From IMG/VR virus record IMGVR_UViG_3300022413_000008, positions 4,315 through 68,314 of that record: a DNA stretch of 64,000 bases; one strand, 5' to 3'. Source of the stretch: a virus. The first letter of the stretch is position 1; each line of letters starts with the position of its first letter. The notes below the pieces were generated by a model. The model worked only from the letters and a program-made list of their open reading frames with translations. It searched no databases and was not told the DNA's origin. Below are positions 15,688 through 63,643 of the stretch, one piece after another. The position numbers were made by a program, and so were the translations under genes.

Positions 15688-16573
15688 ACTCGAGGTAGGC
15701 ATCGCACGATACATCAAGGACCAGGAGCACCGCTGGGCTTCCGCTACGCTACATGAGAACACCGTACGTCTCGCCAGATTCGCAGCCAGCATGGGGAGCC
15801 AGACAGTGACTGCCAAGGCTGTCTGCTCCTACTTGAGAGAGCTGAAGCAGGACTTGCGTGAGCAAACGGTCGGGTTCCACCAGAGGACGATCAAGGCCTA
15901 TCTCAAATGGGCCGCGCTCAACGGATACGAACAAAGGGGCATAGCAGACAACGTGCATGTCCGGTGCCGTAACTCCCCGCTGAAACGCGAGACCGTTACT
16001 AACAAGGAATTCGACAAAATACTTGAGGCAACAGAGGAACTGTTTCCGACCTTAGTAGGCCCAATGAAGATGGCTTATTGGACAGGGCTCCGTGCGAGTG
16101 ATGTCTGGCGGTTAAAGCCTGAACACGTGGATGTGAGTATCCCTTGTATCACCATCGTGCCGCTCAAAACGAAACGGCTCGGAACCCAGGTGACGATACC
16201 ATTCGAATGGGGCACCCAATTGGGTGATCTCATTGAGGAGTTACTCAAAGTGACATCGAGTGGGCAAACCTTCTTCCCTTTCCCGAGCAAAGGCACTGCG
16301 AGACCAACGAACTCCTTCCATAGGAAAATGAAAAAAATCCAAGAGAAGGCGGGAGTGAGGAGGTTTACTTTCCATAGCTTGCGACGTACGTTCATTTCAA
16401 ACATCATGAATTCAGGTGCATCTCCCCAGATTGCGGGCGCAGTTGTGGGAATCAGAAGCCCCGTCGTGCTCGCACGCTACGCCGTGCCGCAAATGGATGG
16501 GCTCCAGGAAATGATGGAGACCGCAAGGAAATATACAACCAGAAAGGACAGGACATGGAATCGGCGGCAGTAA
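15665..16573 (+). CDS. Tyrosine recombinase
   Basis: YWTGLRASD (R), PLKTKR (K), FHSLRRTF (HxxR), ARY (Y). Confidence 0.9.
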   Translation: MRRKQQTELEVGIARYIKDQEHRWASATLHENTVRLARFAASMGSQTVTAKAVCSYLRELKQDLREQTVGFHQRTIKAYLKWAALNGYEQRGIADNVHVRCRNSPLKRETVTNKEFDKILEATEELFPTLVGPMKMAYWTGLRASDVWRLKPEHVDVSIPCITIVPLKTKRLGTQVTIPFEWGTQLGDLIEELLKVTSSGQTFFPFPSKGTARPTNSFHRKMKKIQEKAGVRRFTFHSLRRTFISNIMNSGASPQIAGAVVGIRSPVVLARYAVPQMDGLQEMMETARKYTTRKDRTWNRRQ

Positions 16574-17130
16574 AGGCCCTCAAGAAGGGCGATGTAATCC
16601 AGGTGCTTCAAGGAGATCACATCGCCACACTCGGCATCGTTACAAGCGCAGGCACATCCCTGTTGAAGTGCTGGTGCAGAAGCCCTCACCCTGACGCAAA
16701 GCAATATCACTTCGAAGTCGAAAGGTATTGCGTCAGGCGAATCGGACGAGGGGCCAAAGGGCCACCCCGCGCCAAACAACAAGAACCGGATAAGATCGTT
16801 CACAGGCCAGTTGCTAAGCCACCTCCGGAACTCCCAGCGGAAGTCCTGGAAAAAGCTAGGGAAATTGCGGAGAACATAGTGCCACAGGACGACTCAATTC
16901 TTGTGAGCCAGGCACCGGCCGCATGCCACCCGCTACCGATCAAGGATTACCATGAACCAGAACGAGATACCAATACCGCCCCCAAGAAAGCTAAGAGAAA
17001 AAAGCGTAAGTCCACGCGGAAGAAAGTTCAGTCTCCGGGTCAGGATAGCCGAAGTCGACGGAGGGAAGTATCTGTTCCGGTGGAGGGTCAGAATACAGGG
17101 CAAAATCTACCGGCGCCAGAAAACTCGTAG
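16555..17130 (+). CDS. Hypothetical protein (KOW/SH3-like N-terminus, basic tail)
   Basis: LKKGDVIQVLQG start; Pro/Lys-rich tail. Confidence 0.65.
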   Translation: MESAAVKALKKGDVIQVLQGDHIATLGIVTSAGTSLLKCWCRSPHPDAKQYHFEVERYCVRRIGRGAKGPPRAKQQEPDKIVHRPVAKPPPELPAEVLEKAREIAENIVPQDDSILVSQAPAACHPLPIKDYHEPERDTNTAPKKAKRKKRKSTRKKVQSPGQDSRSRRREVSVPVEGQNTGQNLPAPENS

Positions 17131-17260
17131 GTTCGTTTCTGACTTGGCGGCTCGCGAGTTTGCTAACGCACTACTGCTATCAGCCAAAAAGGAATGCCTA
17201 GGTTTGAACGCAAAGCCGGGACCGTTTACTTCGCCCATTCAGGAGATGCTGGAGATCTGA
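16952..17260 (+). CDS. Small basic protein, possible AP2/arm-type DNA-binding domain
   Basis: KYLFRWRVRIQGKIYRRQKTRRF...AREFAN; overlaps both neighbours. Confidence 0.45.
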   Translation: MNQNEIPIPPPRKLREKSVSPRGRKFSLRVRIAEVDGGKYLFRWRVRIQGKIYRRQKTRRFVSDLAAREFANALLLSAKKECLGLNAKPGPFTSPIQEMLEI

Positions 17261-17964
17261 TCTACGCGCTGCCCGCGATGCGAGCGAAGGCTGGCCGACA
17301 AAAGGTGGGGATTATCTTGACGAGACGAACCAAGGTGAGACGGCCATGGGATCCAGAGTGGGTTTGCAACGCAAGGTCACTGCTTGAGTTGCAACCATAT
17401 GTTTCTCACGTTCATTACCTTGAGGGCACTGATCAACGAACACGACTGTGGGATCACGATGTGGATCCGTTCCGACCCTACCTCATCAAGAGTTACAGAT
17501 GGGGTGCTACGATAGCCGACTATGTCTCCATTATTCTTGGTGTCTCTGACCAGTCATCGCATCAGCCATGGCTTGAGGTCGATGAGCCTTCCTTCGTTCC
17601 GGGGCGGAGCGTGATCTTCGCTCGTTCCAGTCGCTACCATAATCGGAACTTCCCTTGGAAGCGGGTCTATGAAGCTTATCGGGGAAAGTCCGTCTTTGTC
17701 GGCACACAAACTGAACATGCGGTTTTCCAGGGAACTTACGGGAAACTCCCGCTCGCTGTCACGCCTACCCTGCTTGACGTAGCTCGCCTCATTGCAGGCT
17801 CTAAGCTTTTCATCGGTAACCAGTCGGTACCTTACGCCATCGCGGAGGGGCTTAAGCATCGCACTGTTCAAGAGCCGTCGACCAAGATACCTGATTGCAT
17901 GTGGGCACGACCTAACGCTACATTTGGGTGGCGGGCGACAGTGCCATTGCCTGAGATAATATGA
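17194..17964 (+). CDS. GT9-like (GT-B) glycosyltransferase
   Basis: HSGDAGDLIYALP and LLDVARLIAGSKLFIGNQSVPYAIAEGL motifs. Confidence 0.8.
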   Translation: MPRFERKAGTVYFAHSGDAGDLIYALPAMRAKAGRQKVGIILTRRTKVRRPWDPEWVCNARSLLELQPYVSHVHYLEGTDQRTRLWDHDVDPFRPYLIKSYRWGATIADYVSIILGVSDQSSHQPWLEVDEPSFVPGRSVIFARSSRYHNRNFPWKRVYEAYRGKSVFVGTQTEHAVFQGTYGKLPLAVTPTLLDVARLIAGSKLFIGNQSVPYAIAEGLKHRTVQEPSTKIPDCMWARPNATFGWRATVPLPEII

Positions 17965-18368
17965 AGCCAATTACTGTTAAGAAGGATTGGGGGTCCGAAG
18001 AGTGGCTCGAGAACGAACTGTATTGCGTCAAGCGAATGACGTTGACCCAAGGCTGCATCTGCTCCCGGCATAGGCATCCGAGTAAAACCGAGACGTTCTA
18101 TGTGATCTCTGGAAAGATGCTTGTTGTTACCCTGCCAGACGGGGATGGGAACGACCTCACGAATACTCTACTAACCCCAGGCGGGCACATCACGATACCG
18201 GCTGGCATCTGGCATGAGTTTGTTGGACTCGCGCCAACCACTTTCCTGGAATGTTCAACCTTCCATTCGGATGACGATGTGGAACGATTGACACAATCAC
18301 GAGCTCTCACTGAGAGCGAGTTAAAACGCTATCGAGACACTGCCGATGCCTGTTCAGAACCTGCTTAA
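17961..18368 (+). CDS. Cupin (sugar isomerase-like)
   Basis: VKKDWGSEEW, SRHRH..KTETFYV and IPAGIWHEF. Confidence 0.85.
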   Translation: MKPITVKKDWGSEEWLENELYCVKRMTLTQGCICSRHRHPSKTETFYVISGKMLVVTLPDGDGNDLTNTLLTPGGHITIPAGIWHEFVGLAPTTFLECSTFHSDDDVERLTQSRALTESELKRYRDTADACSEPA

Positions 18369-19755
18369 ACTTGCAAAGGACTCCGGATATCCGGACCTAT
18401 CATACCACAATTGGCTGCTCGCCCAAGTCGAGGCGGTCAAGGCAACCCATATACTAGAGGTAGGAGGGCTCCAGGGTTCGACAGCCGTGGCCATGGCAAA
18501 GGCAAAGCATAACCCAAAGATCTCGATCATCGATGACTTTGAATGGGCCGACTACGATGCGTTGCGAACCAACCTCAGTAATTGCGTTGCCAAAATTTGG
18601 GAAATCGATAGGGGCAAGGACCTTGCTCGCATGCCAGAATTCTTGCTGTCGAATCCGGACGTGGACTTTATCCACCTGGATGCCGACCATGCCACCTACG
18701 GAGTTTTGGGGGAGTTGATTGCGGTTCACATGTATTCAGACTGCCAAACGGTAGTGGTGCATGACCGGATCGACCCCTCCGTTCAAAACGGGGTGAAACT
18801 TTTCAAGCACTGGTATGGGGAACACTGGGACATCCAAGAGGTGACCAATGTCTTTAACCATGCATACCTTATTCGTCGTCACGACCGCTCACGAAAACAG
18901 AGTTCCGCACTTACCAATATCATTGTCCCCCCGGGGATTGGGGACATCGCATGGGTATGGCAGAAACTTCCAGAAGATTTTGGGCCTACGTCTGTGCAGA
19001 TATGCCGAGGCGGGCCGCCAAGATCGAAGCCATTCTGCGAGATCCTTCCGGGTGTAACTCATGCTGTTGAAATCAACGAACCCTACCATTGGCTTTCTGT
19101 TCAGCGGATCCCGCATTACGCAGACCCACGCCTGTTCCGTGGGACATCCTTTCCAATGGAAGTCAACAGCTTCCTTGAGGGAGACTACACAATGGAGACG
19201 GTCTTCCCAACTGTGCCGACGCGTTACTCCATCCCGTTCAATATTGCTCCTGCGGTCGCAGAACGAGCACGACAGGCCATACCTGACAGCATACCGACGA
19301 TCGGTATCTACACAAGTAGCCAGGCGAACAAGTCGTGGGGCAAGCATTCACCAATCGACTGGCTGAACAGTGCCTCCAGAATCTATGAAACAATTAAGCC
19401 ATGCCGGATCGCAGTAATAGGAGCTGGCTTCGATCGTGAATATACTGATCCGATTTGTGCCGGATTGATGCAACGTAACATCCCTTACCTGCCAATCGTG
19501 GGCCAGCACATTGGCTTTGTGATTGAAGCTGTGCGCCACATGAAGGCGCTCTTCGCGTTCCCTAGCGGCATCGGCATCATCGGTTCGTTAGTCAACACGC
19601 CGACCGTAATGGGAATGCCTGGCCACCTACCTAAGCTGCAATACAAGTGGGTCGATCCAGCGATGAGAGCATCGGGCAGATTTATCCATCACCCAATTGA
19701 AGACCTCAACGGAATGACCAAGGTATTTCTAAATGAACTACGCACAGGACCCTAA
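18346..19755 (+). CDS. Class I SAM methyltransferase fused to a GT9-like glycosyltransferase
   Basis: N-half: ILEVGGLQGST, FIHLDADH, VVHD; C-half: PPGIGDIAW, FAFPSGIGIIG...TPTV. Confidence 0.75.
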   Translation: MPVQNLLKLAKDSGYPDLSYHNWLLAQVEAVKATHILEVGGLQGSTAVAMAKAKHNPKISIIDDFEWADYDALRTNLSNCVAKIWEIDRGKDLARMPEFLLSNPDVDFIHLDADHATYGVLGELIAVHMYSDCQTVVVHDRIDPSVQNGVKLFKHWYGEHWDIQEVTNVFNHAYLIRRHDRSRKQSSALTNIIVPPGIGDIAWVWQKLPEDFGPTSVQICRGGPPRSKPFCEILPGVTHAVEINEPYHWLSVQRIPHYADPRLFRGTSFPMEVNSFLEGDYTMETVFPTVPTRYSIPFNIAPAVAERARQAIPDSIPTIGIYTSSQANKSWGKHSPIDWLNSASRIYETIKPCRIAVIGAGFDREYTDPICAGLMQRNIPYLPIVGQHIGFVIEAVRHMKALFAFPSGIGIIGSLVNTPTVMGMPGHLPKLQYKWVDPAMRASGRFIHHPIEDLNGMTKVFLNELRTGP

Positions 19756-20437
19756 TAAGACAGGCGGCAGCACCCGCAACAAAACATTCATTGCGAACTC
19801 TACGTTTGAGTTTTGGAACATGGAGTTGATCGTCGAGACTCCTCCAACCACACCGATTGCGTACGACAAGGACTACTTCGAAGAATTTAAGAAACGCTCC
19901 AGCTCCGAGATCGCCGAACGGCTAAAGGCATTCCGCAAAGGGTTCGCTGAGAAACATTGTGAGTCCCCGTCAGACAACATCCTGGACTATGGCTGCGGCT
20001 ATGCGCCAATTGTGCGCGACGATATCTTGGCGGAGAGAGCCGGCCAGGCCAAAGCGAGGTGGTGGGCTTACGATATCAATGAGGCTTGTCGCAAGGGCAT
20101 CGACGAAAGGTGGGCTAGAACTTACCAAAAGTATCCCATGTGGTGCTTCTTTGATTGCATGGAGCATTTTTTTCGCCCCGACCTGCTCCTTGATTGGATC
20201 CCCAAAAGGTTTGTTGCCACTGTGCCTTGCGTTCCCGATATAAGCTGGCTCCATCCCGTGTTACTCCCAGCCTGGAAGCATTTCAAGCCCGGGGAACACT
20301 ACGTCTACGGGACGGCATTTGGTTGGGCTCACCTATTCCGGACTAGCGGATTTAAGGTGATAGAAGTAACCACAACAGAAAGTATTCTCGGTCGTGAACA
20401 CTCCGTCACATTCGCCTGTGTCAAAGATTCCAGTTAA
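19733..20437 (+). CDS. Class I SAM methyltransferase (start may be 19820)
   Basis: YDKDYF, ILDYGCG, YDIN, FFDCMEH and HFKPGEH. Confidence 0.85.
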   Translation: MNYAQDPNKTGGSTRNKTFIANSTFEFWNMELIVETPPTTPIAYDKDYFEEFKKRSSSEIAERLKAFRKGFAEKHCESPSDNILDYGCGYAPIVRDDILAERAGQAKARWWAYDINEACRKGIDERWARTYQKYPMWCFFDCMEHFFRPDLLLDWIPKRFVATVPCVPDISWLHPVLLPAWKHFKPGEHYVYGTAFGWAHLFRTSGFKVIEVTTTESILGREHSVTFACVKDSS

Positions 20438-21227
20438 GGGGTTAGCTGGCCCATGGGTCGGAGAGCTCGGATGGGAGATCATGTGCTGGCAGGGTCACCT
20501 CAGATGGCGGGCCGAAAATGAGTGCAGTGATCTGACAGTAGTCTGCGAACCGGGACATGAATTACTGTATCAGGACTTCGCCAAGAAGATTGTGAATACC
20601 CGCCCGGGTGTCATCTCGGATCAAAGGGATTGTTGGGCAAACCGGATAACAACCGAAGGGGCAGCGCTACAGCATTCCGACTACACCCCGACAAACTTCA
20701 CTAAAGTATGGGCACCTTCGCGCTTGAAGATTAGCCACATGCCACGGTCGTCCGGCTACCAATACTTCCAAGCCCAGACGTTCCGAAAGTTTCAGCTCGC
20801 GTTCCCCGCTGCTCAACCGTTGGTGCTGGCCCACATTCGCAACACCACCAAATGCGGAACGAGTGTCCGCAACTACACACGGTTCGCCGAGGTCTTAAAT
20901 GCCATGCCGAGCCACACGAAGGTAGCGACAATTGGAACAAAGGATCAGGCACAGCATCATGTGGGGGCTATCGATGCCCGCGCAAACTGCCTCCAGTCGC
21001 AAGCAGAGCGCTGCGGGGAGGCCTGGTGCATGGTCGGCCCATCGTCAGGACCAATGGTCTTTGCCATGCATTGCGGCTGCCCTGTCGTAACATGGGGTCC
21101 CGAGGTGCTGGCTCACCGTTACACCGACACATGGAACCCATTCAAAACACCCGCCGAATTTATTGTTGCCAATGATTGGCAGCCAAACCCAAAGTTAGTA
21201 GTAGAAAGGATAAAGACGTTCTTATGA
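20394..21227 (+). CDS. GT9-like glycosyltransferase (start probably GTG 20418)
   Basis: GPWVGELGWE and MVGPSSGPMVFAMHCGCPVVTW. Confidence 0.75.
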   Translation: MNTPSHSPVSKIPVKGLAGPWVGELGWEIMCWQGHLRWRAENECSDLTVVCEPGHELLYQDFAKKIVNTRPGVISDQRDCWANRITTEGAALQHSDYTPTNFTKVWAPSRLKISHMPRSSGYQYFQAQTFRKFQLAFPAAQPLVLAHIRNTTKCGTSVRNYTRFAEVLNAMPSHTKVATIGTKDQAQHHVGAIDARANCLQSQAERCGEAWCMVGPSSGPMVFAMHCGCPVVTWGPEVLAHRYTDTWNPFKTPAEFIVANDWQPNPKLVVERIKTFL

Positions 21228-21985
21228 TAGCCATTCTTGATCGCACATATAAGGGCGGAATCTACGAGTATTCCGCAAAGTTGGCCGAAATGCTTGGAGT
21301 GGAGCTGCACGCAGAAGATCCCGATCTGCCAGAAGGAGAGGCGCGGTACACGTTACTTCAGTATCACCACACCGTATGGACAGCACTTGCCGTCAGAAGC
21401 GTGCTGTCAAAAATAGAAGAGGGGGACACCGCATCCATCATGTTGCATGACCAACATTTTTCTGATCTTTTGCCCACTATGCTTGGTCAGTTCGATAATC
21501 GTTTCGTGTTGTCTCGAGAGCTCGAAGCCAGGATTCCGGACGCTACCTACATTGCCCCACCCTGCTTGGAGAAAAGCCCAATGCTCTTAGGGTTCGGCGA
21601 ATGGAGGAACAACCATGATCGAAACGCTGCTGCATGCGCTCTAGCTGGCTGCCAGTATGATGGAGAACCCGGGGTATGGGACTCCACTGACGATTTCAAG
21701 CGTCGCCTCAATGCCTGCGATGGGGTCATACTTAGCTACTGTGAAGCGGATGCAATTTGCTGGGCATCGTCGCTTGCCACCGCTCTAAGTACCCATAAAC
21801 CTGTCTTCCTATCAAACATCCGACACTTCGCGAGCGCACCGCAATGCTCGACAGTCTTTAAGCACGAGACCAAAGACGAGCTGGTTAACCAACTCAAGGA
21901 TGTCTACCGCATGCCATACATGGAGGAACACGATTGGCTGAAGCATTCGCAGTCAGTTAAGGCAGCAATGCTACCGTTGCAATGA
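21224..21985 (+). CDS. GT-B-like glycosyltransferase
   Basis: GGIYEYSAKL, CDGVILSY, SSLATALSTHKPVFLSNIRHF. Confidence 0.6.
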   Translation: MIAILDRTYKGGIYEYSAKLAEMLGVELHAEDPDLPEGEARYTLLQYHHTVWTALAVRSVLSKIEEGDTASIMLHDQHFSDLLPTMLGQFDNRFVLSRELEARIPDATYIAPPCLEKSPMLLGFGEWRNNHDRNAAACALAGCQYDGEPGVWDSTDDFKRRLNACDGVILSYCEADAICWASSLATALSTHKPVFLSNIRHFASAPQCSTVFKHETKDELVNQLKDVYRMPYMEEHDWLKHSQSVKAAMLPLQ

Positions 21986-22866
21986 GAACCGCAATCTTAG
22001 TCCCGGCTTACAACCGCCCTGACTTTTTTCGGCGCACACTCACCTCGTTCAAACGATGCCCCGAAGTAAGACAGGGGCAACTCCCTGCATTCTTCTACCT
22101 CGACGCCGGCCCCAACTCCCGGATCAGCCAGAACGCGGCCATTGCCTCGGAGTTTACGTTCCCAAAAACAATCGTGCGCAGGCCTGGGCATTGGGGGCTA
22201 GGAGTCAATCAGATCGAAGCTCGCCGCGAGGTATTTGATCGTGGCTTTGATAGAGTCTTCCTTATTGAAGATGACGTGGAGGTCTCAGCCTCATACTTTG
22301 GACTCATGTCGCGTCTCATGGATTGGTGTGAGGCCAAGGGCTACAATGTTGGATGTGTTGGAAGCGTCATCAACTGTCGGCTACCCGTCCAGCAAAAGCG
22401 GAACGCTCTCCGGCACGCTGGTGATGTATGTGCTCCATGGACAAACTACCTGATGACTGCGAAGGCATGGAAAGATATCTGGCCGACCGTCTATGAATAC
22501 CAGGACCGTTTCATCGTCAATCGTCCCTACATGAAGCGTGACGTAAAGACAATCCAGCAGTGGATGAAAGCCAAGTCAGCAACCTTCACGACCAACCCGA
22601 CAAATTTTCCGGCGACCTACAATGTGCGACATCGGTTCTGCCGAACTGACTGGCACCCACCCACAGGACAGGACGGAGTCTGTGAGATGGCTCTGAAGAT
22701 GCATGGCTACGCCCGAGTCCACACGATCGTCAACCGAGTCTTGTTCTACGGTGAAACCGGCACACATAGCACGCGCCAATGGTTCATGGAGCAGAGGCTA
22801 AACGAGGTGCGCCTTGATGAGTTCCCGGAAGATGCAACGTTGAAGGATTTTGAGGAAAGAATATGA
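21982..22866 (+). CDS. GT-A (GT2-like) glycosyltransferase
   Basis: ILVPAYNRPDFF, FYLDA and FLIEDDV (DxD-type). Confidence 0.85.
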   Translation: MRTAILVPAYNRPDFFRRTLTSFKRCPEVRQGQLPAFFYLDAGPNSRISQNAAIASEFTFPKTIVRRPGHWGLGVNQIEARREVFDRGFDRVFLIEDDVEVSASYFGLMSRLMDWCEAKGYNVGCVGSVINCRLPVQQKRNALRHAGDVCAPWTNYLMTAKAWKDIWPTVYEYQDRFIVNRPYMKRDVKTIQQWMKAKSATFTTNPTNFPATYNVRHRFCRTDWHPPTGQDGVCEMALKMHGYARVHTIVNRVLFYGETGTHSTRQWFMEQRLNEVRLDEFPEDATLKDFEERI

Positions 22867-23588
22867 AAACCATCACCATACCCACCACCAATCGGCTTCC
22901 ATACTTCTTGACATGCATGAGTGGACTGGCTGGCAACCCGGAACTGTCAGACTGGAAGGTTATCGTACTGCAGACACGGAAGAATTTCTCGCCAACTCTC
23001 ACAGAAATGCTCGTGCGAAATCCTGAGCTCGATGTGTCGGTAGTTGTCGAGGATTGCCCGACACCAGACGAGGCGGTCTATCGGCTCCATGATTTGGCTT
23101 ACGGGAGATTCCACTCGGACGCCAACCTCTTCGTTTGCGATGACTTCCGGCTGGAATCGGACGCGCTTGAGTTATGTGATTGGTGGTTGCGGAAGAACGC
23201 CGAAATCGCTCGAGTTGGAGACGAACCGATTAGGGATTGCCTCAGCCTCTGCCTGTCCTGTGCCAACCGTCCGTCAGACAAGTCTGAGCGACTCGAAATA
23301 CTTCGCTGGTTTCACGCCGGCGCATTTCTGACCACTCGAAACAGATGGGTGGAATACTTCGCGTCAAGCCGCGAGGTCGACTCTAGGGGTTGGGATTACT
23401 CTATCAACTCCGTGCTCGCGAAACATAAGATGTATTGCTTATTTCCTGCTGTGTCACGCGCAAACGAGTTCGGACGCTGCGGCAATGCACACCTTACGCC
23501 AGCAGATTTTAAGGCACGCCACCCTGGAATCCAGTTACCGCCGCAACACTTCGATGTTGTGCCGGAACCGTTAGAAAACAAACCATGA
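22863..23588 (+). CDS. GT-A-like glycosyltransferase
   Basis: ITIPTTNRLPYF, LFVCDDF, GWDYSIN and PAVSRANEFG. Confidence 0.75.
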   Translation: MKTITIPTTNRLPYFLTCMSGLAGNPELSDWKVIVLQTRKNFSPTLTEMLVRNPELDVSVVVEDCPTPDEAVYRLHDLAYGRFHSDANLFVCDDFRLESDALELCDWWLRKNAEIARVGDEPIRDCLSLCLSCANRPSDKSERLEILRWFHAGAFLTTRNRWVEYFASSREVDSRGWDYSINSVLAKHKMYCLFPAVSRANEFGRCGNAHLTPADFKARHPGIQLPPQHFDVVPEPLENKP

Positions 23589-23767
23589 ACTTGCCGGAAT
23601 CCACCCAGAAGGCAGCGAAGTTTGAGCTCGTCTTGCAGGCACTCAAAGAGGCCAACAGGATTCTGAAGGAGCATGAGCGACGCATCGATCAACTCGAGAG
23701 ACGCATCATTGTTAAAACTTCGGCCGAGGATCGTAGTGCTTGTGGAGGGATGCCCGCTCCGCAGTAG
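23585..23767 (+). CDS. Small coiled-coil protein
   Basis: 60 aa; last gene of the + strand arm; overlaps the convergent gene. Confidence 0.55.
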   Translation: MNLPESTQKAAKFELVLQALKEANRILKEHERRIDQLERRIIVKTSAEDRSACGGMPAPQ

Positions 23768-24491
23768 TCCACTGTTTATGTCGAGCATCTGGAATCCCAA
23801 ACCTCTCAGCCCACGCGAGATATTCCCCGGATAGGTTCTGGTAGCGTCGCAAGAAATACTTCGCGTGCCGTCCGGAATGGTCCGTGATCTCGGGGCATAG
23901 ATGCACACGGTTTTCGAGGGCGCTATTCCTCACGGCATCCCAGAATACTTCCACGAACTGATCCTGGTAGCTCTTAGAATGGTGGATCTGATGTTCATAC
24001 GCTTCCTTTAGCCACTGCGCTGACAACATCCCAGGTCCCACGCGCATGAATGCAACGTCAGTTAGCATTGCGAACTTGGCGAACTTGGTGTGCCCACGGT
24101 GGATCAGCCGAGCATTGGGACTGCCAGGGAAAACTGCTGCAACAGCCGGATTAGCCGCAAATCGTTCTTCGACTATTCGCTTCACATCCTTATGGATGAT
24201 CATGAACCGTTGAGAGGTCTTGACCGCCACGTCAGCACCTACATGCTCGGCAAGCGCTAGAGCATCAATGAAGGCCTGCATGTCACCCTGGAAGTGACCA
24301 ACCGGAGAATCATTGGTCTTGAATGAACACCTATGTTGGCCGGCTATGGCACGATTCTGCGGTGTCTCTGGAGACCGGTCGTCCCTGACCTGAATGGGCA
24401 GGTCATCGCCAAAGACGCCCCTAAGGAATCGGATGTTCAGCTCTGTGAAATGGGGAAGCCCAGCACTACCTACACATGCGGCATACTTCAT
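23712..24491 (-). CDS. Hypothetical protein, possibly GT-A-like
   Basis: 259 aa; VRDDRS and GHFQGDM; coupled to the giant gene. Confidence 0.7.
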   Translation of the reverse strand: MKYAACVGSAGLPHFTELNIRFLRGVFGDDLPIQVRDDRSPETPQNRAIAGQHRCSFKTNDSPVGHFQGDMQAFIDALALAEHVGADVAVKTSQRFMIIHKDVKRIVEERFAANPAVAAVFPGSPNARLIHRGHTKFAKFAMLTDVAFMRVGPGMLSAQWLKEAYEHQIHHSKSYQDQFVEVFWDAVRNSALENRVHLCPEITDHSGRHAKYFLRRYQNLSGEYLAWAERFGIPDARHKQWTTAERASLHKHYDPRPKF

Positions 24492-36097: not shown

Positions 36098-36240
36098 ACA
36101 AGGAGGTCTTCATTCCATTGCTCTAGCTCCGGGAAACGATCCAACATCTCTTGCGGCATCGCAGGAGGAAGCGGGAACTGAACCTCTCGAACCGAGGCCT
36201 GAGTCCGAACCAGTCGCCTAACCTGTATAGGGGCAGCCAT
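36037..36240 (-). CDS. Hypothetical virion-associated protein
   Basis: 67 aa, coupled. Confidence 0.65.
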   Translation of the reverse strand: MAAPIQVRRLVRTQASVREVQFPLPPAMPQEMLDRFPELEQWNEDLLVWAQRLQGLFEVKNPEQDVS

Positions 36241-38675
36241 TACCCTTGTTCACACCTTCCGACTTTCGCAAAGGCGCTCGAGAAACAAAGTGACCCGCCA
36301 GTGCCGCGAACCCTAAGTCGCCACTGGAAGAAGATCCCCCGCCTATAAGGGAACCACTTCGCCGGCTCGTCAGCTCGGGTCCCTGCAAGATCGTGTGCTG
36401 TATCCGAAGTCAATGATTGGCATCCAATAGGCCGGCCGTCGAGCACGCTGCCATCTGTGTCCACAATCCGTTCCAGTTTGAATTGACCGCACTCCGGCGA
36501 CGGTCCATAGCCAATGAATAACTCAAGCGTTGACGGTGTCGTTTGAACCGGAGCAGTGAAATTTACCAGGAATTCGGAAATGGTCTTCTCCAAGTCGCTT
36601 TTGAAATCATCAGCACCAGATTCCAGAACAGTGGTATAGCCATCCAGAACATAGACCGCACCATCAGTGATCCTCTCCCTGGAGAAGATCTCGTCATCGT
36701 ATTCCTTCAACGCGAAATCCGTGGCGCTAGCCATCACGAAACGTTCCAATCGTTCACACTCTCCGCACAGCTCGAATTCAGAGAGATCCCCAATCCTTGC
36801 ACAGGCAGAATCAGGGTCGGTCGGAAGATTCACGTCCTCGGTAGGGTTAATGATCGATGTTGGTGGATCAGTAAACGGAAGGCTCACCTCAGGATTCGAA
36901 GGCCCCTCTTTGACTGTTTGAGCAGCCTGTTCTTCTCGCGTGCAAATCTCCAGCTCCTCAAGAAACGCAGCAAGCGTTTGTGCGGGCCGCCCACTCAACC
37001 AATGGAAAGCGGTGAAACCATGGTCAACCAAGTCCGCCCCGAACTGCTGGTTCGTCAGGTTGAATACGAGGCTCATGTTCGGACATTGATTGTCGTCAGT
37101 CGGCCAGCTGAACCACATTTCCTTGAACTGAGGGTTCCATCCTCCAATGAAATGGGAACAGGCTTCCTCATTCAATGGCCCGAACGAAATGTCGTCTCGG
37201 GTAATGCCATCAAACACGACATTGCTCACCAGCCGTTGCCAGTCCACTTCTCGAGGTCTTTTGTCAAAGGACGTGAATTGCAGTAGCCGCTCTTCAGACC
37301 AATAGTAATGGGCATCACCAGTATTAACGAGACTCCACTTATACTTCAGTGCGTCACCCCCGTCCTGCTCATGGTAAACCTGTTCAATGAAGAAGACCGG
37401 ATCAGTGCTCGTCGCGCCCGCTGTAAGAGCCACTCGGTAGATTGAACGATTGGTGTAGACGAAAAGAAAATCGTTCAGGCCTTCAATCCTTAGAATTGTC
37501 TCACCTACTCCCAGATCCTGGAACCCGGCCAGCGAATCGTCTGCCGGCACGTAGGACGTAGGATTGTTGAAGTCTGACCATACCAACCGAGCCCTCTGGC
37601 GTGTGCCGTCCTGCACGACATTGCCGAAGAAGATGAACCCCTTCCATTGGCTGACAACGGCAGCAGAGTCAATGTTGAGTGTCTCCAAATCATCGATCGG
37701 CACGGCCGCATGGAGCTCGCATCCTTGATGGGTCGCAAGCATGTTCCAATACAGTGGTGCGTCGAAATCATTGGTGAAGACAATGGAGTTCTCATGTACG
37801 GCACTCATGAACTTGAGCTGGTTGCACGTATTGCAGTCTGCATCTTCGTTCAGTGTGCCGCCCAAGCCATCAGCAAGTATCCGCCAATTACCGGTATCCT
37901 CATTGAGGGCATATAAGCGACTCTTAGTTCCAGCGACCAACATGCGAGCCCCCTCAGAGCTAGTGGCATGATCCAGCATCGTGATCGCTTCAAGGCAGCC
38001 AGGCCGTGTCATTCGCTCGTCCCCACAATAGAGGTAGGTGTAGCTCAGGTCGGTCGAGTAGACGGGAATCGGATCCCCGTATCCGTAGCCGGGAATAGTT
38101 GAACCCGGCGTCACGACCGGAAGCTTCAGATCGAAATAGCTTGTCTGCCAATAGTCAGGATATCCGGACGTGCAAGGAGGATCATAAGCGCTGAGTAATG
38201 GGTCGAAGAAAGCAGCCTGCAGCACGTACGGATGCCCAACAAAGTATGGGTCACAAATCGTGAACTCACCATCGACGAAGTTTGGAAAATTATAGATCCC
38301 AAAGAAGTCTGGCGCATAGCCACACTCTGTCCCGTACGGCAAATTCGTCTGTTCGGGCGATGTCACCGAAGACGGGAAAAAGAACGGGTACTGGACTCCT
38401 GTCTGCTGGCCGGGAACATTGATAGGGATTGAGAATTCTTCGTAGTAAAACTGGAGGCCAGTCAACTGATCATGGAGATCAGAGTTGTTGTATGGATCAT
38501 TGATGTCGGCAAACAGTCTTCGCCACCCACCACGTCTGCATCGCTTTCGGCGCCCACGGTTGGCGGCATTCAGGACAAGCCGGTAAGCATCAGCCCCAGT
38601 TTCGTCTGGCTGCGATCTCGCATCAAAAACTCCCGCCAACGACCGGAGCTTGATTGATCTGAAAGGACTAGGCAT
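36240..38675 (-). CDS. Tail nozzle / packaged-DNA stabilisation protein (P22 gp10 / T7 gp12-like)
   Basis: 811 aa; beta-propeller-like segments (RLVWSDFNNP, YTNRSIYRV, YFWSEE-like); position. Confidence 0.7.
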   Translation of the reverse strand: MPSPFRSIKLRSLAGVFDARSQPDETGADAYRLVLNAANRGRRKRCRRGGWRRLFADINDPYNNSDLHDQLTGLQFYYEEFSIPINVPGQQTGVQYPFFFPSSVTSPEQTNLPYGTECGYAPDFFGIYNFPNFVDGEFTICDPYFVGHPYVLQAAFFDPLLSAYDPPCTSGYPDYWQTSYFDLKLPVVTPGSTIPGYGYGDPIPVYSTDLSYTYLYCGDERMTRPGCLEAITMLDHATSSEGARMLVAGTKSRLYALNEDTGNWRILADGLGGTLNEDADCNTCNQLKFMSAVHENSIVFTNDFDAPLYWNMLATHQGCELHAAVPIDDLETLNIDSAAVVSQWKGFIFFGNVVQDGTRQRARLVWSDFNNPTSYVPADDSLAGFQDLGVGETILRIEGLNDFLFVYTNRSIYRVALTAGATSTDPVFFIEQVYHEQDGGDALKYKWSLVNTGDAHYYWSEERLLQFTSFDKRPREVDWQRLVSNVVFDGITRDDISFGPLNEEACSHFIGGWNPQFKEMWFSWPTDDNQCPNMSLVFNLTNQQFGADLVDHGFTAFHWLSGRPAQTLAAFLEELEICTREEQAAQTVKEGPSNPEVSLPFTDPPTSIINPTEDVNLPTDPDSACARIGDLSEFELCGECERLERFVMASATDFALKEYDDEIFSRERITDGAVYVLDGYTTVLESGADDFKSDLEKTISEFLVNFTAPVQTTPSTLELFIGYGPSPECGQFKLERIVDTDGSVLDGRPIGCQSLTSDTAHDLAGTRADEPAKWFPYRRGIFFQWRLRVRGTGGSLCFSSAFAKVGRCEQG

Positions 38676-39331
38676 TACGTCTTAATCAGGAATCTGAATA
38701 CAGCATAGGGAGGAAGATTGTCATGCGATAGCCCACCACCTGTATTTCGTGTTTCTCCGAGTGCGGCCGCGACGTTGTTAGGTTGCCAATCAACCTCTTC
38801 ACCACCCCCGACACGCAACCTCCCGGTCTCTCCATCGGTTGGTAGCCCATCATCTTCAACGCCAAACGTGTGGTTATGGGCTGGAATCTGTGTCACGTCC
38901 AAGGTCACCGTCTTGGCCCCGCCGCTCCCCGCTAAAGGAAAATCGGCATCGGTTCCACTGAGACCAAAGAGTGACTTGCCTTGCAGATCCGGCAAATTGA
39001 ATGTGGTCGCAGCATCGCCAGCACCATAAACAGTTCCAATCTTTGTGAAAAGGTTGGCGTATGTCGTGCGAGACACTTCCTGTCCATTGCACCAAAGCCA
39101 GCCTTCAGGAATGTCCGCGCCAGCATAGGCCTGAACAATACCTGGAGGTAGTTGGAACACTTCATCACGAAACGTCTGGCTCAGGGTGCCATCCGCGTTG
39201 AGCATGTAGTTGAGGAAATCACAAATCAGCTGTGGTTGCTCATACAGCACTCGCCGCAACGCTTCGCACCGATCAGTCGTCGGTGTCGGAGTCAGCTCAC
39301 AAAACTCACTGGGTGTTACCGGACTCGGCAT
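38675..39331 (-). CDS. Tail fibre with phage tail-collar domain
   Basis: PPGIVQAYAGADIPEGWLWCNGQEVSRTTYANLF...FNLPDLQG. Confidence 0.9.
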   Translation of the reverse strand: MPSPVTPSEFCELTPTPTTDRCEALRRVLYEQPQLICDFLNYMLNADGTLSQTFRDEVFQLPPGIVQAYAGADIPEGWLWCNGQEVSRTTYANLFTKIGTVYGAGDAATTFNLPDLQGKSLFGLSGTDADFPLAGSGGAKTVTLDVTQIPAHNHTFGVEDDGLPTDGETGRLRVGGGEEVDWQPNNVAAALGETRNTGGGLSHDNLPPYAVFRFLIKT

Positions 39332-40388
39332 GGTCTATGATCCCGTGTTTTAGCAAAAGTTTCACTAGTCGTTCCGCGAATCTTAGCTCAGTGAAGCGTG
39401 ACGCAGATTCAGTTGCCAGCAATCCACGGCTTCGGACCATGTCGCGATTCGAGTAAATCCATTTCAACTGCGAAATCGCTGAGTCACGATCCGGCTCCAT
39501 CCATATGCCAGATCCGTCGTAAATACCCTGCGCTGGAACGAACGAAAAGTCCACAGGAAAGGAGTTGTTTCGATCCATGAACATTTCAAGTGCCGTGTAA
39601 ACTGGGCAGACACATGGCCGGCCAAGACTCATTGCTTGCTGCTGCCATAGCCCCCATCCTTCACCGCGAGACAAGGAGAAGAACACATGCCCTGATGCAA
39701 GCCATCGTGCCAGTGCCTCAGGCTTCATGTCTTCCCGTCTGATCGTAACGCGAGGGTCGTCCCACACATCTTCCAAGTCGCACCGTGGGGTGATCTTCAA
39801 GTGTAGTTCCACATCGGGCGTATCATGGAATGCAGCTATCCAGGTCTCCACCAGCTCAGGAAGCATTTTACGTGTGCCTCCAACCTCCCTTTGCCCGGCC
39901 GCTTTCACGATGAGTGGGCCATCTAAAGACATTGGCTTGAACGCAAACAAATCCGGATTGATGCCAAGCGGAAGCACTTCGATCGGCGCAGTAACCCCAG
40001 CTGCACCAAAGACGCCTGCATTCCAGAAGGATGGAACCATTATTAGGGAAGCCTTATTGAGTTCCTCCACATATGATGGATGCAGCCCATTCGTTTCCCA
40101 CATTGTGAACCAGGCGATCTTTTTACCCCTGGACTCTGCCAGCGGATCCGTGGTCGGTGGGTGGAAGAGGAGTTCCCAGGGCTCGGGGCCGGGGCGCTTT
40201 ACGAAACACTCACGAATCTTCGGAGGGATGGCTGGATCATCATGGGCCGACGATACGGTAGGACGAACATCGACATGTAAGCCTTGGTAGGTCAAATAGC
40301 TTACTGCCATCTGGGACACGCGGCCCCATGCGGAATGACCATCAATTTGACATCGTAGATTAAGACGGCGCGACGAATTCATCGCCAT
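39306..40388 (-). CDS. GT4-family glycosyltransferase
   Basis: FTMWET, MVPSFWN, LPLGIN and SLSRGEGWGL..QQAMSLGRP. Confidence 0.9.
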   Translation of the reverse strand: MAMNSSRRLNLRCQIDGHSAWGRVSQMAVSYLTYQGLHVDVRPTVSSAHDDPAIPPKIRECFVKRPGPEPWELLFHPPTTDPLAESRGKKIAWFTMWETNGLHPSYVEELNKASLIMVPSFWNAGVFGAAGVTAPIEVLPLGINPDLFAFKPMSLDGPLIVKAAGQREVGGTRKMLPELVETWIAAFHDTPDVELHLKITPRCDLEDVWDDPRVTIRREDMKPEALARWLASGHVFFSLSRGEGWGLWQQQAMSLGRPCVCPVYTALEMFMDRNNSFPVDFSFVPAQGIYDGSGIWMEPDRDSAISQLKWIYSNRDMVRSRGLLATESASRFTELRFAERLVKLLLKHGIIDHAESGNTQ

Positions 40389-40393
40389 CCAAC

Positions 40394-40846
40394 TTACGAG
40401 GTGTCGTCTTGCCCGTAAACGGTAAAAGTCAAAGCATCAGACACACTGACCCGAACTGCCATGGCCCCATTAGCTCCAACAATGAAGGGTCCGCCCATTG
40501 ACAAAATAGAGTTCCCTGCGAGAGAAACGTCCCATGCCAGAGCTGTCGACTCATCAAACGTAGCCCCGTCATCATCATTCATCAGGCGGAATGTCACTGC
40601 CCCGGCTGTCGTGTTCGCAACCTGGATCGTGTTAACTGTTTTCTTGGTACCGCCACCAGCTAACAGAGTTGTCGGGGATGTCCCAGGGGGGCGAACCTGT
40701 GCCAGTTCCGTGTCCTGAGCTGTGTTCCGAACTGCTTCAAAGACCGAAACAATCAGGTCCCGCATGTCTTGAGCGCTAATCTGCCTGGTGTTGTTGTCGG
40801 GAAACAACGCTAGCAATTCCGCTTCGGTTCTAACTGTATCACTCAT
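40394..40846 (-). CDS. Minor virion protein
   Basis: RTEAELLALFPDNNTRQISAQDMRD resembles an N-terminus seen in phage structural accessory proteins. Confidence 0.65.
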   Translation of the reverse strand: MSDTVRTEAELLALFPDNNTRQISAQDMRDLIVSVFEAVRNTAQDTELAQVRPPGTSPTTLLAGGGTKKTVNTIQVANTTAGAVTFRLMNDDDGATFDESTALAWDVSLAGNSILSMGGPFIVGANGAMAVRVSVSDALTFTVYGQDDTS

Positions 40847-41739
40847 TATCCAAATCCAAATCCAAATGCGTCAGGGTCAAATGCATTGAGGGTCGCTCCT
40901 TCAGCCAAGTCGGTAGACGGATGCGGATAAACTGGAGGGAACATCATCGAAAGCTGTCCTGCATCAAGTCCTTGGCTGCAATCGCGATCAGCTTGGACTC
41001 TCCGATGTTCGTTGCACCAGTACGCCAGATCTGCAAAAGCGTTCTCGGATTCTTGCCTCAGATCCCGAGCATGTGCCGCATTCTTATCGTTCCTAAGAGC
41101 CACCTCTGCTTGAATGGAAAGTGCCACATAATTCTGAATTCCTGAATCATCAGGGATCGCATCGTTGTCGCGCCAATTTGTTCGCAATCCTTCCCAATGG
41201 ACAGCGACGATGTAGCCACACGGGAACCGAGGCGCCAAGTAGATCTTTCCTTCCTCTTGGACAGAAAAGAACCGAGATGCACACTTGAAATTGTCATCCG
41301 GTTCCTCTGTCTCCGTCGCAAAATACGGGTAGCACACAGCCCCGCCAGACGAGTAAACAGTCGTGTCAGGATTCACCCACCGACACCCATCCTCGGCAGC
41401 CCAGCAGCTCAGAAACTGAGCCGTCTTGTGATTGTAGAAGAACTTCTCACAACTCGCTGTGGGCTTGAACGCGTAGACAGCCTTGATTTTGGCGCGGGAT
41501 GGGCCATGAATGAGCGACATCCCACAATGATCGAAAGCCTGGTCCTTGTAAAAGAAATCGACCTGATTAGCCCTCCAGCATTCAATGAACATCTGCAGCT
41601 TGCTCAGAGCATTCTTGAAGTACAGGTCATGAGCAAACGCCATGCTTTCGCCAGCACCCTCCGGGAATACGACACGCCGAACCGCTGTCTTGAATGCGGA
41701 GTATGTCGTGTATTCAATGGTTGATTCTGGCGCGATCAC
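40846..41739 (-). CDS. Head-tail adaptor / tail tubular A-like protein
   Basis: TYSAFKTAV start; size and position after the capsid gene. Confidence 0.6.
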   Translation of the reverse strand: MIAPESTIEYTTYSAFKTAVRRVVFPEGAGESMAFAHDLYFKNALSKLQMFIECWRANQVDFFYKDQAFDHCGMSLIHGPSRAKIKAVYAFKPTASCEKFFYNHKTAQFLSCWAAEDGCRWVNPDTTVYSSGGAVCYPYFATETEEPDDNFKCASRFFSVQEEGKIYLAPRFPCGYIVAVHWEGLRTNWRDNDAIPDDSGIQNYVALSIQAEVALRNDKNAAHARDLRQESENAFADLAYWCNEHRRVQADRDCSQGLDAGQLSMMFPPVYPHPSTDLAEGATLNAFDPDAFGFGFG

Positions 41740-42173
41740 TCTGACACTTTCCCTACCTTCGGTATCACAAATTCAGTTTCCACTTTCAGTGGTTCCACCT
41801 TTTGAGCACCGGCAACGCCTGTAGCCACCTGCCCGTTAGGAGTAACCTTAGTGTCCGCATCGACGGCAGCGGCGACGCCTGGCTTGAGGTGGCTGAGCGT
41901 TGGGGGACCCACCAATTCTCGTCGCTTTGGCGCTCGCAGATTGAAGGTCGATGTGCTTTTTTTTTCAAGGAAGACCTTGTATTCTGATTCGGAGATTTCT
42001 GACACTCCGCCCGCTCCCCGAGCCATCAATTTGTTGAGCTCGGTGATAATATATCCGTTGGTTGTCGCCAGATATCCGTAATGCTCATCGGCAGCCTCAA
42101 ATGGAATCGGTGAGCCGTGAGGCAAATTGATCGGCTGCCTCGGACATTCCTTCTTGAAATACTTTTGGTCCAT
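41736..42173 (-). CDS. Hypothetical protein
   Basis: ORF after the capsid terminator; ATG at 42173. Confidence 0.7.
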   Translation of the reverse strand: MDQKYFKKECPRQPINLPHGSPIPFEAADEHYGYLATTNGYIITELNKLMARGAGGVSEISESEYKVFLEKKSTSTFNLRAPKRRELVGPPTLSHLKPGVAAAVDADTKVTPNGQVATGVAGAQKVEPLKVETEFVIPKVGKVSE

Positions 42174-42210
42174 CTCCCGCAATGTAACGCCCTGGCCTTA
42201 CAAACGCTAC

Positions 42211-42244
42211 AAAAAAGCCCGGCAGAATGGGCGTCTGCCGGGCT
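42211..42244 (-). terminator. Rho-independent terminator after the major capsid gene
   Basis: 11-bp stem agcccggcaga/tctgccgggct plus a T6 tail on the - strand. Confidence 0.9.
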
Positions 42245-42278
42245 CACCTCACTCTTGTCTCACTCTCCCTCTGTGGGC

Positions 42279-43976: not shown

Positions 43977-44028
43977 TTGTCTAGTTCGCGCCGCTGCCGA
44001 GCTTCAGCGTACGTCCTTACTAGACAAA

Positions 44029-58731: not shown

Positions 58732-58943
58732 ATCGTCGCTGGCGACACTCCCAGTTCCTTTGCTATCTGCCGCAAAGGAAACCCTTGCCTCTTCATCTTT
58801 AACGCAGCCTTTCGCCGTTCATTTCGACGGCGAATGTCAGCATGTGACGCTTCTCGACGGCGCTTCTTCTCTTCAATAACTGTGACTTGTAGCCGTGCGA
58901 CCCTTGCTCGGGCCTTTTTTAATTGATCAGTGAGCCTCTTCAT
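58692..58943 (-). CDS. Small HTH protein
   Basis: GFPLRQIAKELGVSPATICADLK. Confidence 0.8.
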   Translation of the reverse strand: MKRLTDQLKKARARVARLQVTVIEEKKRRREASHADIRRRNERRKAALKMKRQGFPLRQIAKELGVSPATICADLKRKASRAK

Positions 58944-60744: not shown

Positions 60745-61242
60745 TTAACTCGTCAATCCCTTTCTATAGCGAGTCTTGGTTTCAAGGCATTTCTCGCAGG
60801 TGTGCCTCCACTTAAACTTCTTTTCACGTCCGCAATTCGTGCAGACCCCTTGCTTAAGGCGATTCGCTATTCGCCGCCGTCGCTTATCGGCTTCTCGAGT
60901 TCGGCAGGCTTTGCATTTTGCGGCCCCCTCTTTGTCTAGATGCCGGCCGCACCGGCATTGCCCAGCCGATCGGCGACCTCCATGCAATTTCTCACGGTAT
61001 TTGTATTGGATCATTCGACACCGCTCACAGGTAGCCCGACCCTTTATTGGGGCATCCTTTCCGCACGTCGAACACAGCCCGGCTGCCTTCCTCTCTGCTC
61101 GCGTAGTTCGTGCCCAGTCCCTTTGAGCCTTCTTGTACGACTCATCCTGGTCTGCCACCGGCTGAGTATTCAGCAGACGAATGACCTCTTCCTTGGTCGG
61201 AAGCCCTAACTGACTCGCTAAACTCATCTGCTCCCTTCCCAT
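60745..61242 (-). CDS. Basic protein with three tandem Cys4 Zn-finger-like repeats
   Basis: CSTCG/CERC, CRCG/CKAC and CTNCG/CEKC. Confidence 0.8.
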   Translation of the reverse strand: MGREQMSLASQLGLPTKEEVIRLLNTQPVADQDESYKKAQRDWARTTRAERKAAGLCSTCGKDAPIKGRATCERCRMIQYKYREKLHGGRRSAGQCRCGRHLDKEGAAKCKACRTREADKRRRRIANRLKQGVCTNCGREKKFKWRHTCEKCLETKTRYRKGLTS

Positions 61243-63641: not shown

Positions 63642-63643
63642 AC

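Follow-up and report, generated by a model that had tools for sequence, protein, structure and literature searches.

A cassette of soluble glycosyltransferases and methyltransferases in a tailed phage, with a possible role in glycosylation of the phage particle

Results

Gene organization of the cassette

The stretch of DNA analyzed here (the window, 64 kb) comprises bases 4315–68314 of a 73,174-bp viral contig from IMG/VR (IMGVR_UViG_3300022413_000008), for which completeness is rated at 95% and of which the gene content is that of a tailed phage. A first-pass annotation, made by a model from the sequence alone, had proposed a multi-gene cassette for glycan assembly at positions 17194–24491 of the window. 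At this locus lie eight translationally coupled genes on the plus strand, here named g1 to g8 (17194–23588), with successive overlaps of 4–44 bp. A ninth gene, g9 (23712–24491, minus strand), converges on g1–g8 and overlaps the stop codon of a gene of 2955 amino acids (aa) by 4 bp. The proposed layout was confirmed, and a fold or family could be assigned for eight of the nine genes. For these eight the proposed classes (GT9-like, cupin, methyltransferase, GT-B and GT-A) held; for g8, which had been called a GT-A glycosyltransferase, we found only weak links. The predicted products are as follows:

17194–17964, plus strand: g1, 256 aa, compact GT9-like GT-B glycosyltransferase (AlphaFold2 model and structural matches)
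17961–18368, plus strand: g2, 135 aa, metal-binding cupin, WbuC-like (Cupin_2, 2.7e-9)
18346–19755, plus strand: g3, 469 aa, fusion of an N-terminal O-methyltransferase-like part (~180 aa) and a C-terminal GT9-like part (~280 aa)
19733–20437, plus strand: g4, 234 aa, class I S-adenosylmethionine (SAM) methyltransferase (Methyltransf_23, 1.2e-6, over cut-off)
20394–21227, plus strand: g5, up to 277 aa, GT9-family glycosyltransferase (transitive homology)
21224–21985, plus strand: g6, 253 aa from M17, short GT4-like GT-B glycosyltransferase (Atlas)
21982–22866, plus strand: g7, 294 aa, GT2-like GT-A glycosyltransferase with an EDD motif
22863–23588, plus strand: g8, 241 aa, candidate GT-A enzyme, possible distant paralog of g7
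23712–24491, minus strand: g9, 259 aa, protein of the GT-A fold encoded at the end of the late operon (Atlas model)

By themselves, Pfam, PHROGs and NCBIfam identified the cupin g2 and the methyltransferase g4; their matches to g7 and to the N-terminal part of g3 were weak. No paralogs were detectable by blastp among the cassette proteins, and each protein was therefore analyzed separately. In agreement with the first-pass annotation, no transmembrane segments were found in the nine cassette proteins or in two related enzymes encoded elsewhere in the window: across all 11 proteins the maximum 19-residue Kyte-Doolittle mean was at most 1.49, below transmembrane strength. An orthologous block is kept in a related phage contig (L003, described below), and the cassette is therefore not a chance arrangement of genes.

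Searches of GenBank phages, which covered 50,697 phage records including those of mycobacteriophages, gave no match, neither by blastn with the gene block nor by tblastn with g1, g3, g5, g7, g8, and g9. In IMG/VR, no related loci were retrieved with the single g3 protein or with the C-terminus of the giant protein encoded by the 2955-aa gene.

Downstream of g8 we observed a coiled-coil-like open reading frame (ORF) of 60 aa (23585–23767, plus strand), the ATG of which overlaps the g8 stop codon (ATGA) and which ends 56 bp inside the 3′ end of g9. This ORF may be a further (ninth) coupled gene of the plus strand block.

Three GT9-like enzymes

The g1 protein was modeled with AlphaFold2 (AF2) from an alignment of 63 sequences, with a predicted local distance difference test score (pLDDT) of 96. 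When this model was compared with known structures using Foldseek, the top matches were GT9 structures: 3tov (a Veillonella GT9 protein, 7e-8), TibC, WaaC, and WaaF, with E-values from 7e-8 to 1e-5. Structural alignment with VIA-align gave Z-scores of 15.6 (1psw and 3tov), 14.7 (WaaC), and 14.6 (TibC), whereas the next family, the UDP-GlcNAc 2-epimerases, scored 8.9. Because of this difference (14.6–15.6 against 8.9), the model assigns g1 a GT9-like GT-B fold.

At the level of sequence this relationship is far less apparent. Homologs of g1 (n = 197) carry a Pfam domain in almost no case, and residues G20-D21 are invariant in the family. The GT9 family model PF01075 was not matched by g1, g3, or g5 themselves, and a six-frame search of the genome with this model gave no match at E ≤ 10; TIGR02201 matched g1 at 0.037 only. 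Likewise, when run against the PDB, the family profile of g1 (A3) retrieved no sequence and that of the g3 C-terminus (A2) no GT9 protein. Profile-profile comparison with hhalign did connect the g1 family to the g5 family (probability 75%, E 2.5e-5).

The first-pass annotation had read g3 as a methyltransferase-GT9 fusion, and both halves are supported by profile and homolog matches. The N-terminal part matches Methyltransf_24 (4e-4; 21.6 bits, under the cut-off of 26.3) and Methyltransf_3 (0.013), both weakly, and its profile (A6) retrieved the cation-dependent O-methyltransferase family 3 from the PDB (7cvu, 8e-4); in the alignment the sequence LDADH of g3 is placed opposite IDADK of this family, at the position of the DxDK-type motif. 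Three proteins share 29% identity with the C-terminal 280 residues, and PF01075 is present in one of them (P0002). In addition, hhalign aligned the family of the g3 C-terminus with that of g5 (probability 68%, E 4.7e-5), while the g3 C-terminal profile gave no significant alignment with the single g1 or g5 sequences or with the g1 family. Based on these homologies, the C-terminal part of g3 is classed as a GT9-like glycosyltransferase.

For g5 the assignment to GT9 is by transitive homology: among 886 homologs, PF01075 was matched by 40 of the 69 that were aligned, with a best value of 2.7e-12. Matches of the g5 profile in the PDB were weak (E 0.03–0.7), and all seven were GT9 proteins. The start codon of g5 is placed at GTG 20394 or GTG 20418 rather than at M30, because homologs align from residue 15–17 onward. 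Public gene calls begin the gene at Met30, which removes the conserved GxxGWE N-terminus (20394–20481). Compared to WaaC or WaaF, g1, the C-terminus of g3, and g5 are each shorter by 60–90 residues.

Other genes of the cassette

The cupin g2 matches TIGR04366 (WbuC) at 7e-9, under the cut-off of that model, and phrog_7851 at 2e-22. Its matches in the PDB are generic cupins, and homologs are retained in two of the related phages (L003 and L093). The g2 protein may be an isomerase or epimerase of sugars or sugar nucleotides. The methyltransferase g4 additionally matches phrog_6564 (methyltransferase, 2.5e-17).

The Atlas feature score of g6 to viral GT1/GT4 clusters is 0.96, and its structure reaches a TM-score of 0.5–0.56 to Glycos_transf_1 clusters. 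The longest ORF of g6 begins 16 codons (21176–21223) ahead of the start that is common to the L003 ortholog and the Atlas record. The match of g7 itself to PF00535 is weak (0.04), and its ortholog, with 73% identity, matches PF13641 at 4.2e-8 (33.9 bits, cut-off 27) and PF00535 at 7e-4. For g8, a single homolog was found, and the AF2 model made from the resulting two-sequence alignment had a pLDDT of 41; hhalign placed g8 on the C-terminus of g7 with an E-value of 3.9e-4 and a probability of only 36%, and the g8 ortholog showed a weak match to MGAT2 (0.0016). Profile searches of the PDB with the g7 and g8 sequence pairs returned nothing useful. The Atlas model of g9 shows a TM-score of 0.58–0.71 to GT2 clusters, and the nearest clusters are 100% viral. 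Homologs of g9 are found at the equivalent position in L003, L005, L006, L093, and L146, the related phages described below.

Related enzymes elsewhere in the genome

Three further genes of the contig encode enzymes of related predicted function:

39306–40388, minus strand: GT4-like glycosyltransferase of the tail operon, whose gene overlaps the tail-collar-fibre gene at its start (phrog_2170 glycosyltransferase, 1e-14)
58927–59787, minus strand: third SAM methyltransferase, 286 aa, encoded close to the tailspike (Methyltransf_23, 6.5e-22)
71688–72650 of the contig (= L009:5689–6651), minus strand, outside the window: RmlD-like nucleoside diphosphate (NDP)-sugar reductase, 320 aa (PF04321, 5.5e-21; PF01370, 2e-6)

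The first two had been noted in the first-pass annotation, and the family matches listed above agree with both calls. The gene at 39306 also matches GT4-conflict and Glyco_trans_1_4 (both ~4e-4), and a homolog of the methyltransferase at 58927 (36% identity) is located inside the cassette of L005, a related phage. The reductase is the only clear sugar-nucleotide enzyme of the genome; it lies far from the cassette and adjoins a DUF551 gene. Together with the WbuC-like cupin, it suggests that 6-deoxyhexoses are among the sugars used.

The genome contains no genes of the heptose pathway and no NTP_transferase or CTP_transf_like (cytidylyltransferase-like) genes. The earlier statement that no nucleotide-sugar synthases are seen does not hold for the genome as a whole, given the reductase, which lies outside the window and was thus not visible to the first-pass annotation. 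The suggestion that ADP-heptose-type donors might be used found no support, as neither heptose-pathway nor nucleotidyltransferase genes were found; use of ADP-heptose made by the host is still compatible with these results. Six-frame searches of the 73-kb, 95%-complete genome gave no match to PF00303 (ThyS), PF00145 (C5-methyltransferase), or PF12851 (TET/JBP), and the result for PF00303 is in line with the earlier remark that a base hydroxymethylase is missing.

A swappable island in related phages

A 77-kb relative (L003/L092) has a backbone in common with the phage studied here and has kept the whole orthologous block, at 41–73% identity. Between its cupin gene and its g3 ortholog it carries an extra gene of 232 aa that the phage studied here lacks (L003:11142-11840; weak match to Sulfotransfer_3, 6.6e-4).

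Five more distant relatives (L005, L006, L008, L093, and L146; 43–80 kb) each have an integrase and a giant gene of 2590–4694 aa. The interval from the integrase to the giant gene's 3′ end holds, in each of them, a different block rich in glycosyltransferases and methyltransferases. A g1 homolog is kept in all five, and in four of them the giant-gene operon ends with a g9 homolog. Additional products encoded by these blocks include an NDP-sugar epimerase/dehydratase, a cytidylyltransferase, a radical-SAM enzyme, and a GT2-GT9 fusion. A further phage (L007, 82 kb) has a cassette that contains g1 along with a radical-SAM gene, transketolase halves, and DUF5672, and the gene immediately after this cassette is a tail-collar gene; neither an integrase nor a giant gene was seen in this stretch. 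Since the blocks vary at a fixed site around a constant core, we conclude from these comparisons that this lineage of 73–82-kb phages carries the block as a swappable island, within which g1, and mostly g9 too, is constant.

The g1 family in phages and bacteria

Relatives of g1 were gathered with one peptide pattern, and for bacteria the set consisted of species-representative genomes. This yielded at least 422 IMG/VR contigs and 131 bacterial species, mostly Chitinophagaceae, Sphingobacteriaceae, and Planctomycetota. We clustered the neighbours within 5 kb of g1 for 80 bacterial loci (L012-L091, e.g. L065:7276-12742) and 80 viral loci.

Among the 80 bacterial loci, an MsbA-like ABC exporter was found in 30, a canonical GT9 gene in 28, and two GT4 families in 18 and 17. 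A Methyltransf_11 gene lies directly upstream of g1 in 24 loci and an FkbM methyltransferase gene directly downstream in 23; YfhO (16–17 loci), DUF5672 (11), and a polytopic membrane ORF (37) also recur. By its gene content, the bacterial g1 locus of Bacteroidota and Planctomycetota looks like a locus of the lipopolysaccharide (LPS)-core type that makes methylated sugars. The g1 homologs in this recurrent bacterial locus are themselves unannotated.

At the viral loci, the commonest partner of g1 is likewise a Methyltransf_11-like gene directly upstream (36–43 of 80), and none of the 80 encodes an MsbA-like exporter or a YfhO-like protein or contains a polytopic membrane ORF. A further viral locus type has the gene order MT23-GT2-MT24-MT11-radical SAM-g1. 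Some proteins of the g1 family are fused to methyltransferase or DUF5672 domains. Examples are proteins of 577–763 aa at L094:7530-9821, L096:7878-9611, and L097:7530-9815, on contigs of 26, 203, and 238 kb, the latter two of which are of jumbo-phage size; in L096 the fusion partner is a homolog of the methyltransferase at 58927 (40% identity). A P-loop protein of 637–666 aa, encoded ~2.6 kb upstream of g1 in 41 of the 80 viral loci, was considered as a large terminase; this was unconfirmed, as no Pfam, PDB, or phage match was obtained. Judged by homology and genomic neighbourhood, g1 defines an unannotated predicted glycosyltransferase family that has no Pfam model and is common to phages and LPS-like bacterial loci.

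Genome context

On the plus strand of the window, genes for a DnaC-like loader, a PD-(D/E)XK nuclease, and a tyrosine integrase (PF00589, 5.6e-17) were identified. The minus strand encodes the tail-collar fibre, virion structural proteins, a beta-helix tailspike, and the 2955-aa giant gene. The fibre gene spans 38675–39331 and the tailspike gene 61224–63680, and a gene for an 811-aa protein lies at 36240–38675. Two further plus strand genes are:

16555–17130, plus strand: conserved protein of 191 aa between the integrase and the cassette, with uncertain membership of the cassette (no family match)
48518–50053, plus strand: large terminase

Homologs of the 191-aa protein occur at the equivalent position in L003, L005, and L093. 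Matches of the terminase are restricted to haloviruses, at ~25–28% identity, and none of the cultured phages is close. A search of the window for tRNA genes found none, and a scan for promoters and terminators gave sites no commoner than in shuffled sequence. The relative L008 has an RVT_1 reverse-transcriptase gene in its early region, near the integrase (L008:3609-4559).

Discussion

Proposed function and acceptor of the glycan

The enzymes identified here comprise three GT9-like, two GT4-like (g6 and the gene at 39306), and two GT-A enzymes (g7 and g9) plus the candidate g8, together with one cupin and three SAM methyltransferases, of which g3 is joined to a GT9-like domain. As several soluble glycosyltransferases occur together with O-methyltransferase-like enzymes, a cytoplasmic, multi-step pathway to a methylated glycan is the natural reading. 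We propose that the cassette could be a soluble cytoplasmic assembly line for a methylated glycan carried by a protein of the phage particle, and put the probability of this at roughly 45%. The donors would be host sugar nucleotides, some of them first tailored by the cupin and the RmlD-like reductase. The transferases would attach the sugars sequentially to an acceptor inside the cell, and the methyltransferases would O-methylate part of these sugars. The acceptor would be a protein of the phage particle, for which we consider the tail-collar fibre and its neighbours first. Such a system would resemble the glycosylation of mycobacteriophage virions and of the capsid of chlorovirus PBCV-1. The first-pass annotation had already envisaged a cytoplasmic, multi-sugar, methylated glycan on virion proteins; its enzymatic part stands, and it is only gene context that favours the virion protein as acceptor.

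This context consists of several links to late genes. The g9 gene is coupled to the 2955-aa gene, the GT4 gene overlaps the tail-collar-fibre gene, and the third methyltransferase lies near the tailspike. In two other phages (L013/L098 and L015) the structural genes are syntenic with window positions 36240–45591, and in L013 and L015 the gene order is GT4 homolog, g1 homolog, 227-aa gene, fibre homolog. The GT4-g1 pair is seen again in L100, where the GT4 homolog lies immediately upstream of g1. The presence of a GT4 homolog and g1 before the fibre gene in related phages favours a phage protein as acceptor over the LPS core of the host. In addition, the phages have acquired the soluble methyltransferase-glycosyltransferase pair and never the export machinery, which counts toward an intracellular phage-protein acceptor, and one of the structures that match g1 best (Z 14.6) is that of TibC, which is a heptosyltransferase acting on protein.

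Several observations weigh against a glycan on the phage particle. A scan for Ser/Thr-rich stretches found no acceptor tail in any real gene of the phage; it returned only antisense shadow ORFs and modest stretches in the tailspike and in a 322-aa protein. The g1–g8 genes are on the early/replication strand just after the integrase, a site that is typical of lysogenic-conversion cargo. The bacterial context of g1 resembles LPS-core loci, and WaaC and WaaF fit the g1 model as well as TibC does. The parallel to mycobacteriophages, discussed below, is by analogy only, because the 50,697 GenBank phage records hold no homologs. Finally, g8 is a possible rather than an established GT-A enzyme.

In a rival explanation, the cassette would instead remodel the lipid A-core or another lipid-linked glycan of the host at the cytoplasmic face, with MsbA or another exporter of the host bringing the product to the surface. 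Such remodelling of the envelope would alter the receptor for the phage itself or for competing phages, as in lysogenic conversion or superinfection exclusion. GT9 is the family of the LPS heptosyltransferases, with WaaF and WaaC among the top structural matches of g1; Waa enzymes are likewise soluble or peripheral; and at the 80 bacterial loci the g1 homologs adjoin an MsbA-like exporter, canonical GT9, GT4, and YfhO genes. The position of the block between a tyrosine integrase and the end of the late operon, and its content, which varies among relatives in the manner of O-antigen loci, fit this explanation as well. The known serotype-converting modules of phages, GtrABC and Oac, however, are membrane proteins, and no membrane protein of this kind is present among the 11 proteins, nor is there an exporter or membrane partner at any of the 80 viral loci. 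Late structural operons contain the GT4 gene, g9, the third methyltransferase gene, and, in the case of L013 and L015, g1 itself, and enzymes made late could hardly replace LPS that is already at the surface. On balance we regard rewriting of the host LPS core as somewhat unlikely.

The sugar chain might also be attached to other acceptors. Hypermodification of phage DNA, which would block restriction, has precedents in phage GT-A and GT-B enzymes that attach heptose, Kdo, and other sugars to 5-hydroxymethylcytosine (5hmC; bioRxiv 10.1101/2023.12.21.572611). An unrelated 44-kb phage contig (L002:7540-10837) has dCMP-deaminase and ThyA-like genes with an MT23 gene and two GT9-like genes immediately downstream, and in that phage such enzyme types may, judging from this arrangement, act on DNA. 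One of these two GT9-like genes encodes P0001, a homolog of the g3 C-terminus. The described routes to glycosylated DNA need a ThyS homolog, or a C5-methyltransferase with a 5mYOX/TET enzyme (bioRxiv 10.1101/2023.12.21.572611; PMC13326640), and because homologs of ThyS, C5-methyltransferase, and 5mYOX/TET were not found in the genome, DNA glycosylation is unlikely. The nearest structural relatives of g1, moreover, are GT9 enzymes and not the T4 beta-glucosyltransferase, and overall we consider DNA as the acceptor very improbable. The cassette may instead act on a small molecule, on free oligosaccharide, or on a protein of the host, for example as a metabolic or anti-defence gene set. Relatives add radical-SAM, transketolase-half, sulfotransferase-like, and cytidylyltransferase genes, which resembles the tailoring of natural-product sugars, and methyltransferases of the TylF/Methyltransf_24 type also modify antibiotic sugars. 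No scaffold enzyme such as a polyketide synthase, a nonribosomal peptide synthetase, or a cyclase was seen in any cassette, though, and an acceptor of this sort leaves the repeated placement beside fibre and giant virion genes unexplained; we consider it improbable.

Returning to glycosylation of the phage particle, we tentatively put forward a more specific form of this proposal, which we regard as possible: in this lineage of 73–82-kb phages, whose uncultured hosts are probably Gram-negative, the serotype-like island would add a methyl-capped oligosaccharide to the fibre or to further virion proteins of the phage itself. The glycan would be started by GT9-like protein glycosyltransferases of the new g1 family, which would work together with a methyltransferase in hundreds of uncultured phages.

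Comparison with known systems

To our knowledge, virion glycans made by phages have been shown only for mycobacteriophages and, among other viruses, glycans made by the virus are known for giant algal viruses. In mycobacteriophage Corndog, an O-methyltransferase and glycosyltransferases are encoded in the virion operon (gp35-38; PMC4351075), and the passage of PMC12619734 that cites Freeman et al. (2023) refers to glycans on mycobacteriophage capsids and tail tubes. These systems and the phage studied here are alike in having phage-encoded soluble glycosyltransferases and an O-methyltransferase, and here too part of the set is located in structural operons. The mycobacteriophage enzymes differ in that they belong to other families and show no sequence match to those of the window, where the set is larger, with nine block genes, including three GT9-like enzymes, and two genes elsewhere. 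Their genes lie inside a structural operon, whereas the main block of the window lies outside one.

In chlorovirus PBCV-1, the capsid protein is modified by A064R, a soluble protein that combines a glycosyltransferase with a methyltransferase domain (PMC5408694). Like the cassette proteins, A064R and its partners are soluble, without signal peptide or membrane span, and make a methylated glycan in the cytoplasm. A064R comes from a eukaryotic virus and has its GT-A domain first and its methyltransferase last, whereas in g3 the methyltransferase comes first and the GT9-like GT-B domain last.

WaaC and WaaF resemble g1 in the GT-B fold of two Rossmann domains (Z 14.6–15.6 to g1) and in an N-terminal Gly-Asp motif. 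The g5 family carries PF01075, as opposed to g1 and g3, which have no match to it, and the phage loci lack an exporter. TibC and Aah (4rap, 4rb4) likewise have a GT9-type fold (Z 14.6 to g1), and they use a protein acceptor in the cytoplasm. TibC differs from g1 in that no match is seen at the level of sequence and in that its N-terminal extension and dodecamer are not represented in g1, and an autotransporter-like acceptor such as that of TibC and Aah is not encoded near the cassette. Like the cassette, the prophage modules GtrABC and Oac carry variable cargo and are found next to an integrase where the late operon ends, but they are integral membrane proteins that work on the periplasmic side, whereas the 11 proteins analyzed here are all soluble. 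The phage studied here adds an unusually large set with three GT9-like enzymes, the island architecture, the g1 family with its pairing to methyltransferases, and the link between GT4, g1, and the fibre gene.

Biological significance

The cassette and its core of g1 and a methyltransferase extend over at least 422 viral contigs. If such enzymes do decorate the virion, variable glycan coats would be widespread among environmental phages and would matter for adsorption, for the evasion of protein-sensing defences, and for the stability of the particle. If instead they rewrite the LPS core, they would represent a new, fully soluble route of phage-driven surface conversion. On either reading, g1 defines an unannotated glycosyltransferase family.

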